Assembly (NCBI GenBank): GCA_042577045.1
Contig: JBHPEK010000003.1
Location: 1 to 57,171 of the forward strand
Reading direction: 5' to 3'
DNA length: 57,171 nucleotides
From: Patescibacteria group bacterium
Lineage (GTDB): Bacteria > Patescibacteriota > Minisyncoccia > JAHISW01 > Tagabacteraceae
Of the stretch, positions 7,221 through 48,479 are shown piece by piece. The notes under the pieces were generated by a model that saw only the letters and a list, made by a program, of their open reading frames with translations, did not search any database and was not told where the DNA came from. How positions within the stretch are numbered: position 1 is the stretch's first letter; every line of letters starts with the position of its first letter. The translations under genes and the position numbers were made by a program.

Positions 7221-7991
7221 TTAAAACTCCAGGTTGAAGAAATCATCCTCACTGCGGAGGGTGCAATGCAAGTAATCCGCGTGTTTTTCAAAATCACTGT
7301 CTGTTCCCAGCCCATGTTCCCAAATCACATTGGCAACAGATACTCCAGCGCGGATAGCGGCCTCAATATCATCTGGCATGTCGCCTATCATGAGCGTATT
7401 TTCAATGCCGACCCCAGTTTCCTGCATAATGTAATTTATGCCTTCGGGGTCGGGTTTTAGGTTTTTTACTGTTCCTGCCCCGACAACAACATCAAAGTAT
7501 TTTATCATGCTATTGCTAAAAAACTTTAAGACACTGTACTTGTGGCGATTTGAACAAATCGCCAGCCGATACTTTTCTGATAAATCGACTAAAAGATATT
7601 GCACCCACGGAAGAATATAAGAATGTTTATTTTCTACAGCGTAAAAAATCTTATTCATCTCTTCCTTTCTAGCCTCGGGAACACCCATTCTCTTCAGAGT
7701 ATCTTCCCAGTCCGGAGTCCACCAATCAAGAAACTCTTCAAGTGTTCGAAAAAATACCCGATAATCTTTATGCAAAAAAGTGATCATTGCTTTATAAGCC
7801 TCGAAAAGACCTTCCCGCGAAGCATGAACCAACACACCGTCCAAATCAAAGATGATCAATTTGTTGGTTGAGGGAGTCGGGTTATAGGGCTGGGGCCCTG
7901 GTTCAACAAGATAATTTTCGCCACAGCCGGGACATTTTTCGGTAATAGTTGGGGCTTCGTATCCGCAATTCACACACCTCGGTTTCGGCAT
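7221..7991 (-). CDS. HAD-superfamily hydrolase with N-terminal zinc ribbon
   Basis: CxxC...CxxC at the N-terminus (CVNCG..CPGCG). HAD motif I is FDLDGVL and motif IV is GDMPDDI. AGGAGG lies 5 nt upstream of the ATG. Confidence 0.8.
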   Translation of the reverse strand: MPKPRCVNCGYEAPTITEKCPGCGENYLVEPGPQPYNPTPSTNKLIIFDLDGVLVHASREGLFEAYKAMITFLHKDYRVFFRTLEEFLDWWTPDWEDTLKRMGVPEARKEEMNKIFYAVENKHSYILPWVQYLLVDLSEKYRLAICSNRHKYSVLKFFSNSMIKYFDVVVGAGTVKNLKPDPEGINYIMQETGVGIENTLMIGDMPDDIEAAIRAGVSVANVIWEHGLGTDSDFEKHADYLHCTLRSEDDFFNLEF

Positions 7992-8048
7992 TGGAACCTC
8001 CTATTGTCAAAGATAAATATTTACTTAATATATACCACAAAAGACAAC

Positions 8049-9093: not shown

Positions 9094-9205
9094 TTCGTTC
9101 CTCCATATTTTATTATCAAAAAACCTTGCACTTTTTATAGCACAGATTATTCAAAAAAACAAGTATAAAAACCCAAACTAATACTCTAATTTCACTCCTG
9201 TTTTT

Positions 9206-11043: not shown

Positions 11044-11084
11044 AACAACTCCCCCTTTCAGTTTTTAAGCTACATTAGTTTAAA

Positions 11085-11114
11085 CAAAGAATAGCACCGA
11101 AGTGCTATTCTTTG
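11085..11114 (-). terminator. Hairpin CAAAGAATAGCAC-CGAA-GTGCTATTCTTTG
   Basis: Perfect 13-bp stem in the intergenic region. Confidence 0.5.
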
Positions 11115-11174
11115 TCAACACAAACCCTTTGCTAGAGAAAATAAAAACCCCGATATTTCTATTGGGGCTTGTTC

Positions 11175-11224
11175 CATCTGTGGGAGGCCCTGAGAGAGAT
11201 ACTATCTCTCTCAGCACACAGATG
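11175..11224. repeat. Composite nested palindrome (outer CATCTGTG/CACAGATG, inner TGAGAGAGATA/TATCTCTCTCA)
   Basis: Read directly. The left end resembles the CTGTGGGA REP stem. Confidence 0.6.
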
Positions 11225-12064: not shown

Positions 12065-12174
12065 TTCAACCTCCTTTTCAGTTGTCAAATTTATCTGCCT
12101 TGTACAGAAAACATTAAGCTATTTATAGCACAAGGATTTTAGTGAGTCAATTGAAAAGTGTTGCCCGCCATATA

Positions 12175-16552: not shown

Positions 16553-16664
16553 AAACCCGGCGGTTACCTACTTTCCCCCCAAAAGAGTATCATCGGTACT
16601 ACGATGCTTAACTTCCGAGTTCGGAATGGTATCGGGTGTGGCCATCGCGTCAAACCACCGGATT
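16553..16664 (-). rRNA. rrf: 5S rRNA
   Basis: The reverse complement reads CCGGTGGTTTGACGCGATGGCCACACCCGATACCATTCCGAACTCGGAAGTTAAGC...GTAGGTAACCGCCGGG, and the terminal helix pairs. Ends are uncertain by about 5 nt. Confidence 0.88.

Positions 16665-16702: not shown

Positions 16703-16715
<13 letters not shown>
16687..16715 (-). other. 3' arm of the 23S processing stem (pairs with 20109-20137)
   Basis: 29 positions pair with 2 G-U wobbles and 1 mismatch when aligned by hand. Confidence 0.7.
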
Positions 16716-20108
<3,393 letters not shown>

Positions 20109-20122
<14 letters not shown>

Positions 20123-21332: not shown

Positions 21333-21462
21333 TTAAACTCCTTATTTTCAAACAACTTTCTCTAATTTGTAACAATTTTAAATCAAAAAAACAACCCTCC
21401 TAACCAAAACAACCCCTCAACACAATATTGAAGGGCTGTTAAAAATACGGAACTATATCAAC

Positions 21463-39855: not shown

Positions 39856-39883
39856 AGTATAGTCACATTCTTTAAAAGGTCAA
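39856..39883 (-). promoter_or_regulatory. Candidate promoter TTGACC-16 nt-TATACT for rplJL, followed by a structured ~105-nt leader
   Basis: Hexamers read on the minus strand. The -35 overlaps the aminotransferase stop. The leader has two hairpins and could be an L10-leader-type element (not verified). Confidence 0.4.
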
Positions 39884-40779
39884 GTATTCTTTTTAAAGTA
39901 ATTTCTCCGATATTTCAAAAAGTCCTTTCTCAAACCAAGAGCAATATCTCCAATAGGAAATTTTTGGTCATTTATGTCAGTCACCGGCCAAACCAATTTG
40001 GTTGTAGAGGCAACAAATACCTCATCAGAATCAAGTAAATCCGATTCCCAAATAACTCCTTCTTCTACCTTATGTCCCCGTTTTTTAGCCAAATCAATCA
40101 CAACTCCACGAGTTACCCCGTGTAGTATATCGTTTAAGGCAGTTTTTATCATAACCCCATCGCCAATCTTTTGAACAATAAAGAAATTACCCGTAGAAGT
40201 TTCCAAAACCTGTTTTTTGTTTACATACAAAATATCACCAAAAATACGACCACCCCACCGAGAAGTAACAACTCGAGCAACAGAATAATTAATGTGCTTT
40301 GAATATGGAAAATCTCTTTGATATAAAACCTTCTTTAACTTCAAACCTTTAGACCTTCCAAACCTAGGAAGAGTAAAAGGAGAAGCCATAATATACAAGC
40401 TAGAGGAACCCACTGGGTTTAACCCATCTTCTGTGTGTCCGCCTGTTACATATACTCTTACCAAAGAATCTGAAAGTTTATTCTCTCTAAGAACCGATGA
40501 AATTTTATCTTTTAAAAAAGTCTTAAATTCAAAAGAAAGCCTTTCTGGTTCTCTTGGAAAAGGCAAGCACAGATTATTCATTGAGTCAGTTAAACGATCT
40601 AGGTGGTCATCCATATGAAAAACAACATTTTCCCTAGCTTCCATTACTTCAAAAACGGCCCAACCTCTCCAAATTAAATCCTTGAAAAGATTAATTGACG
40701 GCCAAATAGAAATATCTACCAAGCCAGAGTAGTCTTCATTTACCACATAACCAATCTCTCCCAATTCACTTAGGTTCAC
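39880..40779 (-). CDS. Class IV (branched-chain / D-amino-acid) aminotransferase family protein
   Basis: Fold-type IV pattern: a K..NY lysine motif (SKHINY), VYVTGG and GVTRG...EVF..ST. GTG start with AGGAGG 5 nt upstream. Confidence 0.78.
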   Translation of the reverse strand: MNLSELGEIGYVVNEDYSGLVDISIWPSINLFKDLIWRGWAVFEVMEARENVVFHMDDHLDRLTDSMNNLCLPFPREPERLSFEFKTFLKDKISSVLRENKLSDSLVRVYVTGGHTEDGLNPVGSSSLYIMASPFTLPRFGRSKGLKLKKVLYQRDFPYSKHINYSVARVVTSRWGGRIFGDILYVNKKQVLETSTGNFFIVQKIGDGVMIKTALNDILHGVTRGVVIDLAKKRGHKVEEGVIWESDLLDSDEVFVASTTKLVWPVTDINDQKFPIGDIALGLRKDFLKYRRNYFKKNT

Positions 40780-40788
40780 TTTTACCTC

Positions 40789-41442
40789 CTATTGTTTCAA
40801 AGAACTGTTGTATTCATTTAAAATATACTGCAAAAGCGGATTGTTGGGGTTGTTTCTTAAACCCTCTTCCAATATATCATCTGCTAAAGATTCCTTCTCT
40901 TTATAAGAATATATATAAAGCTCGTGAAGTTTCTGATAATTCATAATCATTTCGGGGTCATTGGTTATTGCCTTTCTGTAATTAATTTCAGAACGAGCAT
41001 AGTCTGGTAAATACAAGTGGTATAAATCTCCTAAATTATGAAAAGCTACTGACCCATGTGGCCGAATCAAACTAGCATATTCCCAAGCTTCTTGCACGCT
41101 TTTATAGTCTTCAGCTAGCTTAAAAAATAACCCTAATTGTAACCAATTTTGATAATTATCTAAGTCTTCTTTTAACTGTCCTCTAATATATTCAATATCT
41201 AAAATAGTTTGTTTCTTGGCTCCCTCTGACAGCTCGCTGTAAAAAATTATTTCTTTGTACAAATCAGGAATAGGAATTTCCTTATTTACTCCGACCTCCG
41301 GGGTTGATGTAGACGGAGTAGAAATAGTTTCTTCTAAACTAGAATCGTCCCTGTTTAAATCTTTATAAATAAACCAGCCAGACATACTGCTAATTGCCAC
41401 CAAAACAAGAATTAAATAAAATATTTTTTTCATAGTAGTCAT
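40789..41442 (-). CDS. Membrane-anchored TPR-repeat protein
   Basis: N-terminal TM helix followed by TPR-like W..LG..Y......A...Y..A periodicity. Confidence 0.6.
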   Translation of the reverse strand: MTTMKKIFYLILVLVAISSMSGWFIYKDLNRDDSSLEETISTPSTSTPEVGVNKEIPIPDLYKEIIFYSELSEGAKKQTILDIEYIRGQLKEDLDNYQNWLQLGLFFKLAEDYKSVQEAWEYASLIRPHGSVAFHNLGDLYHLYLPDYARSEINYRKAITNDPEMIMNYQKLHELYIYSYKEKESLADDILEEGLRNNPNNPLLQYILNEYNSSLKQ

Positions 41443-46178: not shown

Positions 46179-46197
46179 AATAAATTTTATTGCCGAG

Positions 46198-46269
46198 TGG
46201 GCGTACCAGGGATCGAACCTGGGACCTCTATCTTATCAGGATAGCGTTCTACCACTGAACTATACGCCC
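46198..46269 (-). tRNA. tRNA-Ile (anticodon GAT), no encoded CCA
   Basis: Hand-folded cloverleaf: acceptor GGGCGTA/TACGCCC, D arm GTTC/GAAC, anticodon stem CTATC/GATAG with loop CTGATAA, and T arm CCAGG-TTCGATC-CCTGG. Confidence 0.9.
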
Positions 46270-46333: not shown

Positions 46334-46349
46334 TTTATTTTGTTCCGTT
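46334..46349 (-). other. 3' arm of the 16S precursor stem (pairs with 48118-48134)
   Basis: 16 consecutive complementary nucleotides (AACGGAACAAAAUAAA / UUUAUUUUGUUCCGUU). Confidence 0.7.
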
Positions 46350-46449
46350 AGTCGAGATTTAGGGCTCATCGACTAAAACCCATATTCACAATATGCATAA
46401 AATGCAATTAGTGAAATCGGCCTAATTGTTTTGACGAAGAGTCAAAACG

Positions 46450-48048
<1,599 letters not shown>

Positions 48049-48117
48049 ATACTACCCCGATCTTGCGGGTCGGAGTAAAAAATCTTACACCACATTGAGA
48101 ATGGGTAAGATTTGAAT

Positions 48118-48134
48118 AAACGGAACAAAATAAA
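48118..48134 (-). other. 5' arm of the 16S precursor stem
   Basis: See 46334-46349. Confidence 0.7.
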
Positions 48135-48434: not shown

Positions 48435-48479
48435 AACAACCTCCCTCTTTTTATTTTTCTTTTCCTCGATATACTAACC

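Follow-up and report, generated by a model that had tools for sequence, protein, structure and literature searches.

The window analyzed here, 57,171 bp in length, is the entire contig C3, one of 24 contigs in an assembly of 578,968 bp with a GC content of 34–39% and an estimated completeness of 81%. It carries a 16S rRNA gene (rrs) followed by tRNA-Ile, separate 23S and 5S rRNA genes, and at least seven open reading frames (ORFs) preceded by a Shine–Dalgarno (SD) site (Table 1). A small genome of 0.58 Mb, insertions in the rRNAs, unlinked rRNA genes (rrs and rrl), and the lack of ribosomal protein uL1 fit an organism of the CPR/Parcubacteria type. A profile search for uL1 (PF00687) found no match in the 81%-complete assembly, and at the rplK locus (C17:42-1808 of the genome under study, G000), the genes next to rplK, where rplA would be expected, are dCMP-deaminase-like and thymidylate-synthase-like. 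Within the 16S rRNA, an expansion of ~105 nt replaces the short form of helix 40 (~46812-46928, minus strand, between GACUGCC and GGAGGAAGG), and the 23S rRNA gene contains a group I intron (17734-18017, minus strand; Rfam RF00028, 55.4 bits).

Table 1. Features of the rRNA genes and of the SD-led genes in the window
Feature	Position	Strand	Remarks
16S rRNA	46451..48049	-	Rfam RF00177 SSU_rRNA_bacteria, 1379.8 bits, model positions 1-1533; single copy in assembly
Conserved AAGUCGUAACAAGG	46501-46488	-	Read from sequence; followed by helix 45
Helix 45, GGAA loop	46487-46464	-	Normal form; read from sequence
Non-canonical 3' tail, GAU-UUUAAUCAAAUCG and hairpin	46429..46463	-	Occupies the place of bacterial GAUCACCUCCUUA; without CCUCC
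Pre-16S processing stem, 3' arm	46335..46349	-	15-nt perfect complement to leader ~48117-48131
tRNA-Ile(GAU)	46197-46269	-	Downstream of rrs; ARAGORN and Rfam
23S rRNA	16705-20117	-	26 kb downstream of tRNA-Ile/rrs; Rfam
5S rRNA	16555-16662	-	Rfam
UUGACA-AU-AGGAGG	7997..8010	-	5 nt before ATG (7991) of HAD-family hydrolase 7224-7991 (Pfam)
GGAGG	9100..9104	-	6 nt before ATG (9093) of 165-aa protein, no Pfam family; UUGAUA variant upstream
GGGGGAG	11049..11055	-	5 nt before ATG (11043) of 125-aa protein, no Pfam family
UUGACA-6 nt-AAGGAGG	12070..12088	-	5 nt before ATG (12064) of 173-aa protein, paralogue of 9093 gene
UUGAAA-AU-AAGGAG	21338..21351	-	5 nt before ATG (21332) of ORF <70 aa
UUGAAA-CAAU-AGGAGG	40785..40800	-	5 nt before GTG (40779) of class IV aminotransferase 39883-40779
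GGGAGG	48440..48445	-	5 nt before ATG (48434) of ORF <70 aa; just upstream of rrs promoter region

After helix 45, the 16S rRNA continues as GGAU-UUUAAUCAAAUCG (with UUUAAUCAAAUCG at 46460-46448), where bacteria otherwise have GGAUCACCUCCUUA, and then as a 7-bp hairpin, UUUUGAC-UCUUC-GUCAAAA (46447-46429, minus strand). A sequence search of the 16S, its leader, and its trailer as far as tRNA-Ile found no CCUCC. This agrees with the preliminary description of the window, which had reported that the anti-SD (aSD) motif is absent from helix 45 to the precursor stem and on to tRNA-Ile; the precursor stem that it placed around rrs is likewise present as a 15-bp pairing of leader and trailer. In four metatranscriptomes, the contigs that covered conserved parts of 16S came from other organisms, and none covered the tail.

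To place this tail among its relatives, we compared 16S 3′ ends across 26 genomes from this class. Nine of them read GGAUCACCUCCUUUC, and 17, including G000, are without CCUCC. A homologous CCUCC-less tail recurs in separately assembled genomes from four genera of the family (G000 and three further genera, G003, G005, and G007), with a common architecture of a GGA-A/U-rich tail, a hairpin, AUUAGG, and two further hairpins. Since these four genera share one tail architecture, the loss of the aSD predates the family. We conclude with high confidence that the aSD has truly been lost from the 16S rRNA and that this loss is old, common to the whole family and to most of the class. The suggestion that the tail reflects an error of assembly or sequencing at the 3′ end of rrs is thereby refuted, and we give it practically no credence: the oddness of the tail is all that speaks for an error, and against it stand the homologous tails in four independently assembled genera, the varied aSD-less tails in 17 of the 26 class genomes (one of them closed), the position of rrs in the interior of a 57-kb contig, and the publication of such a loss for this group (PMC9297842).

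The loss itself is therefore already known, and our headline observation adds one more member. Tsurumaki, Saito, Tomita, and Kanai (2022, RNA 28:1041; PMC9297842) detected the aSD motif in just 48% of Parcubacteria; in the passages of that paper on which we draw, the lineages without this motif coincide in part with those that lack uL1, and SD helices are presumed absent from them. The organism studied here resembles those lineages, as they are described there, in its CPR-type genome, 16S end without CCUCCU, missing uL1, and rRNA insertions. Like the endosymbionts and other bacteria with a mutated or lost aSD that the same passages attribute to Lim et al. (2012) and Amin et al. (2018), it combines a reduced genome with a missing CCUCC core. 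What differs is that a minority of genes here keeps a canonical-looking SD, conserved among aSD-less genera and coupled to the element UUGA(A/C)A; mRNA leaders are not treated in those passages of PMC9297842. It is this residual, conserved SD with its upstream motif, beyond the published loss of the aSD, that makes up the less ordinary part of our results.

All seven SD sites listed in the preliminary description are real and lie on the minus strand, 4–6 nt from the start codon. To ask whether they stand out from background, we used a home-made gene set (the longest non-overlapping ORFs, with the first ATG as the start; 563 ORFs covering 89% of the genome). GGAGG or AGGAG was found at −17 to −4 of 11.4% of 555 ORF starts, compared with 0.4% in a control window at −67 to −54 and 1.8% in another at +20 to +33. 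AAGGAG occurred 37 times (0 and 3 in the controls) and AGGAGG 28 times (0 and 1), and GGAGGT, AGGAGG, and AAGGAG were the most enriched 6-mers before starts. GGAG formed a sharp peak at −14 to −10, with 9–20 genes per position and ~1 elsewhere, and the distance from SD core to start codon was 5–8 nt in 55 of 61 SD-led genes. Because SD motifs exceed the control windows genome-wide, the objection that the sites might be no more frequent than background fails. The SD-led genes are distributed over all of the large contigs.

If the 16S rRNA of this organism has no aSD, one could be supplied from elsewhere, and the preliminary description had named a fragmented rRNA or a second rrs copy among its explanations. 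Neither is supported. A profile search of all contigs returned a single SSU match, GATCACCUCC occurs nowhere in the assembly, and a second helix 45 was found neither in G000 nor in the closed, single-contig genome of an aSD-less relative, G025. All seven occurrences of CACCTCCTT lie on the strand opposite a CDS, the 23S gene, or a tRNA-Lys-like repeat. The word CCTCC appears 731 times in the assembly, and the intergenic instances are antisense copies of SD sites, terminators, REP-like hairpins, and tRNAs. We also searched the intergenic DNA of G000, G003, and G025 for an RNA that presents CCUCC(U) in a hairpin loop and saw nothing convincing; in G000 the search returned only tRNA-Arg(CCU) and antisense leader copies. 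The flank of dprA held only small terminator-like hairpins, with CCUCC paired within the stem. One candidate for an anti-leader RNA was rejected: the sequence at C5:38245-38330, CCUCCUUUAUCAA and then two hairpins, is not conserved in five family genomes and reads equally well as a promoter region on the opposite strand. In all, there is no sign that anything else in the genome supplies the missing aSD. A hidden aSD, whether a second rrs, a 3′ fragment, or a small trans-acting CCUCC RNA, could still read the SD sites if it were missing from the assembly. With completeness at 81%, a small trans-acting RNA may have escaped the assembly, and the canonical spacing of the SD sites would suit such a reader. 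However, the closed genome of G025, itself aSD-less, has the same subset of SD-led genes and, like G000, a single rrs with neither GATCACCUCC nor a second helix 45. With the hairpin-loop search empty in three genomes and the sole candidate not conserved in the family, we regard a hidden aSD as improbable.

The tRNA-Lys-like repeat mentioned above belongs to a small array at C13:1578-2060 of G000, where an intact tRNA-Lys(UUU) gene stands beside three tRNA-like copies that have the same insertion of ~24 nt in the anticodon arm. Two of these copies are partial repeats, and ARAGORN and Rfam call only the intact gene.

Because the aSD is lost and nothing else in the genome supplies it, core translation would not proceed by SD pairing, and the geometry of the remaining starts points to two other routes. 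Among operon-first genes without an SD, the pattern TAnnnT started at −13 and −12 in 26 and 39 genes, respectively, compared with ~8 at positions elsewhere, and TGnTAnnnT peaked at −15 (18 vs. ~1). None of 62 SD-led genes had TAnnnT at −13/−12. A clear case of leaderless geometry is dprA, which reads TTGACA, 16 nt, TAGAAT, 7 nt, ATG. With the −10 box ending 6–7 nt before the start codon, the message would begin at or beside the AUG, and operon-first genes would thus be mostly leaderless. Non-SD genes with an upstream neighbor on the same strand overlapped this neighbor or lay no more than 10 nt from it in 152 of 347 cases, and such downstream genes are probably translated by coupling over the overlap or the short gap (≤10 nt). 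On this geometry, initiation of the core genome without an SD, through predicted leaderless starts and coupling, appears well supported.

The SD-led genes form a distinct set. An SD leads 0.8% of the genes that have a homologue in each of the three comparison genomes and 29.5% of those that have a homologue in none. The same split is seen elsewhere in the class, at 0% vs. 26% in G003, 0.8% vs. 17% in G025, and 0.9% vs. 12% in G018, a relative that bears the aSD. The whole class is thus SD-poor in its core, whether the aSD is present or absent. Full or near-full analysis covered four genomes only. In one respect, then, the second explanation of the preliminary description, that this lineage initiates mostly without SD pairing and that its SD-led genes are recent imports, has held up: the SD-led share of the core is very small, −10 boxes lie 6–7 nt upstream of the ATG, and overlapping or abutting genes are many.

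Its other half, recent import, is a more difficult matter. According to this reading, the SD-led genes were acquired horizontally from SD-using donors, and GGAGG is a decaying relic without function. Much of the profile of these genes is as it would predict. A homologue in G003 was found for 21% of SD-led genes and 58% of other genes (p=4e-9), and in G025 for 4% and 56%, respectively. SD-led genes are richer in GC (39.6% vs. 36.3%) and have longer upstream gaps (median 91 vs. 25 nt). A Pfam scan of 47 SD-led proteins left roughly half without any family, and the matches included a split transketolase, an E1 dehydrogenase, three radical SAM enzymes, and an aldo-keto reductase; a GDP-mannose dehydratase, a class IV aminotransferase, and GNAT, HAD, and NUDIX enzymes; and LemA, Band7, a PEP-CTERM protein, a collagen-repeat protein, and thymidylate kinase. 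Many SD-led genes lie in a variable glycan locus or encode enzymes of an accessory-metabolism type. They are mostly accessory, comprising surface-glycan enzymes and small family-less proteins, but also tmk, and an accessory distribution together with higher GC is exactly what horizontal import predicts. The motif and its spacing of 5–8 nt match canonical aSD geometry, which fits an origin in aSD-bearing donors. Signal peptides are not enriched among the SD-led proteins (26% vs. 23%). The PEP-CTERM protein, of 236 aa (C1:55880-56587 of G000), has a C-terminal PEP-CTERM sorting motif (PF07589, 1.9e-7), which is more usual in exopolysaccharide-producing Gram-negative bacteria.

Import does not account as well for the behavior of the motif among orthologues. 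In G003, the SD was retained in 6 of 10 reciprocal-best orthologues, compared with a base rate of 8% (binomial 4e-5). Across the family genomes, a GGAG-type site stood at the start in ~17 of 25 orthologue instances from 11 gene families, namely tmk, DUF6899, the 368-aa, 193-aa, 422-aa, and 146-aa proteins, the aminotransferase, HAD, Band7, the transketolase pair, and one radical SAM gene. Spacers between the orthologues diverge in sequence and in length though the SD is kept. For example, the cluster of tmk, DUF6899, and the 368-aa gene is syntenic beside rplK in G000 and G003 and keeps its SDs, while its proteins are just 34–53% identical and the leaders are otherwise unalignable. The SD of the class IV aminotransferase in the window (the 40779 gene) is present in the G001, G003, and G005 orthologues. 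Other orthologues have lost it (transketolase, a radical SAM gene, and HAD in G003 and G002), as expected of a decaying relic.

A second motif, moreover, accompanies the SD of these genes. In G000, TTGA[AC]A lies upstream of the SD in 52% of SD-led genes, compared with 6% of other genes (p=7e-19), and in G003 the figures are 49% and 6% (p=1e-11). It lies 0–23 nt before the SD, within the leader, 12–36 nt past an upstream −10 box, and orthologues retain it also when an inserted hairpin separates it from the SD. The composite UUGAMA-SD pattern was counted 29 times in G000 with 0 in the control, and 8–40 times in each of the eight family genomes, with 0–4 in a reversed control; several aSD-less genomes outside the family also exceed the control. 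Counts of the pattern were high in family f1 and in G008, G027, G049, and G053, and low in G011, G018, G025, and G050. In the class at large, the excess of AGGAGG-N4-9-ATG over control had a median of ~+37 in 16 aSD-less genomes and +23 in nine aSD-bearing ones, although these class-wide counts are descriptions and not tests because the relatives are not independent.

Several ordinary accounts of the shared leaders were tried and rejected. UUGAMA as part of an RNA fold is at odds with a fold check, in which SD-led leaders were unstructured. As a −35 box with a −10 in or after the SD, it would have to be followed by a −10, and none follows; its distance to GGAG also ranges over 0–23 nt. Paralogy is not the source either: paralogue clusters hold only 14 of 68 SD-led genes, a proportion equal to that among other genes.

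Passive import therefore fits only in part, because it does not predict a conserved motif tied to a lineage-typical element. About two thirds of the orthologue instances from aSD-less genera retain the SD despite divergent spacers, the syntenic cluster by rplK among them; unrelated genes in two genera combine it with TTGA[AC]A; and aSD-less relatives have an excess of the motif that matches or surpasses that of the aSD-bearing ones. The accessory character and higher GC of the SD-led genes agree with that half of the earlier explanation, and the conservation of the motif and its link to the element do not. We consider import as the full account unlikely, while giving it real weight. One further observation bears on the origin of the motif: UUGAAAGGAGG comes close to being the complement of the CCUCCUUUC(U/A)A tails found in relatives with an aSD. 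This would suit genes that arose in aSD-bearing donors. Equally, given this near-complementarity, the composite motif may descend from an extended SD that was shaped while the 16S tail still existed.

An alternative of a different kind is that a new motif before the start has taken the role of the SD by pairing with the altered, A/U-rich 16S tail. A/U-rich words are enriched before starts, and UCAA, the complement of UUGA, occurs twice in the G000 tail. However, duplex energies of each genome's own tail with the region from −22 to −2 were no better than those with shuffled or far-upstream windows or those of another genome's tail, and the UCAA words are not conserved in the G003 and G005 tails, though G003 has the same UUGAMA motif. 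Such a replacement pair is very improbable.

We favor a reading in which the SD-led minority carries a conserved leader signal that functions without the 16S tail. These genes, ~10% of the total, would constitute a third class of starts, predicted to have an unstructured 5′ leader of ~30–40 nt with AAGGAGG 5–8 nt before the AUG and, in about half of them, UUGA(A/C)A 0–23 nt further upstream. The orthologue comparison indicates that this SD-type signal is under selection inside the aSD-less lineage, and a signal kept by selection in such a lineage would have to work without the 16S tail. Judging from these comparative sequence patterns, we think this probable. Its putative reader would be a factor besides the 16S 3′ end, acting in translation or in message stability; a protein or a trans-acting RNA seems most likely. 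CsrA was dropped as a reader, as no CsrA gene was found in the genome. The fuller proposal, that a lineage long without an aSD still selects AAGGAGG and UUGA(A/C)A on leadered, mostly accessory messages, where they are read by a factor other than the 16S tail, joins several such steps, and we put it forward tentatively, as somewhat less than an even bet.

Comparison with other bacteria helps to place this arrangement. In Actinobacteria and Deinococcus (“group C” of GeneMarkS-2), first genes are leaderless, leadered genes have an SD, and the aSD is normal. The genomes studied here have the same two mutually exclusive classes of start, those with a −10 box 6–7 nt upstream of the ATG and those with an SD in a leader. 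There, however, a normal aSD reads the leadered class, and this lineage is without one. In Bacteroidetes, including Flavobacteria, the aSD is present yet sequestered in the ribosome, with bS21 as part of the mechanism, and few genes keep SD sites. Core genes free of SDs, A-rich leaders, and a small set of SD-retaining genes are common to both. The Bacteroidetes keep CCUCC in their 16S, whereas here it is gone, and bS21 (PF01165) was found in none of the eight family genomes. Loss of bS21 as a correlate of aSD loss across the class was considered and set aside as weak, with bS21 present in six of nine aSD-bearing and five of 16 aSD-less genomes that are related and not independent.

If our reading is correct, the SD motif would have a second, aSD-independent use, in initiation, repression, or message protection. 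SD-like sites are conserved here, correctly spaced and tied to a second motif, where ribosomes cannot pair with them, and these tiny genomes would offer a natural test of the SD motif in isolation from the 16S tail and could reveal other recognizers of GGAGG. For gene callers, such genomes need a model with three classes of start: leaderless, coupled, and leadered with an SD.

We also recorded a number of smaller observations on these leaders and on the genome. A structured intergenic element is repeated at ~11100-11200 of the window and, in other contigs of G000, at C1 ~62030-62150, C6 ~15545, C9 ~4757, and C10 ~1750-1860. It has a long-range stem, GUGGGAGG/CCUCCCAC, around a CUGAGAGAG hairpin and an A-rich stretch, followed by a GAAAACC/GGUUUUC hairpin, and several of its copies adjoin SD-led genes. 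In G005, the unrelated leaders of the aminotransferase and HAD genes (L197 and L203) have TTGACA and the SD set apart by GC-rich hairpins that resemble each other (CCCCGC..GCGGGG). This insertion may be a REP-like element that the leader tolerates. Several SD-led genes of G000 and G004 (e.g., L207 and L208) have a −10 box followed by a recurring word, TATAAT-TGNAACAGAAT, which may mark the transcription start region of SD-led leaders. Both release factors look short at the N terminus: RF1 (PST motif, C2:65000-66000) and RF2 (SPF motif, C10:19600-20700) of G000 have open frames of 281 and 302 aa that match only the later part of the PCRF profile, and prfB, the RF2 gene on C10, is a single frame in which the usual programmed frameshift site is absent. 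Lastly, the words TTCGAA, CGAATT, and TCGAAT occur 9–10 times at −20 to −3 of ~10 genes of G000, with zero occurrences in both control windows.
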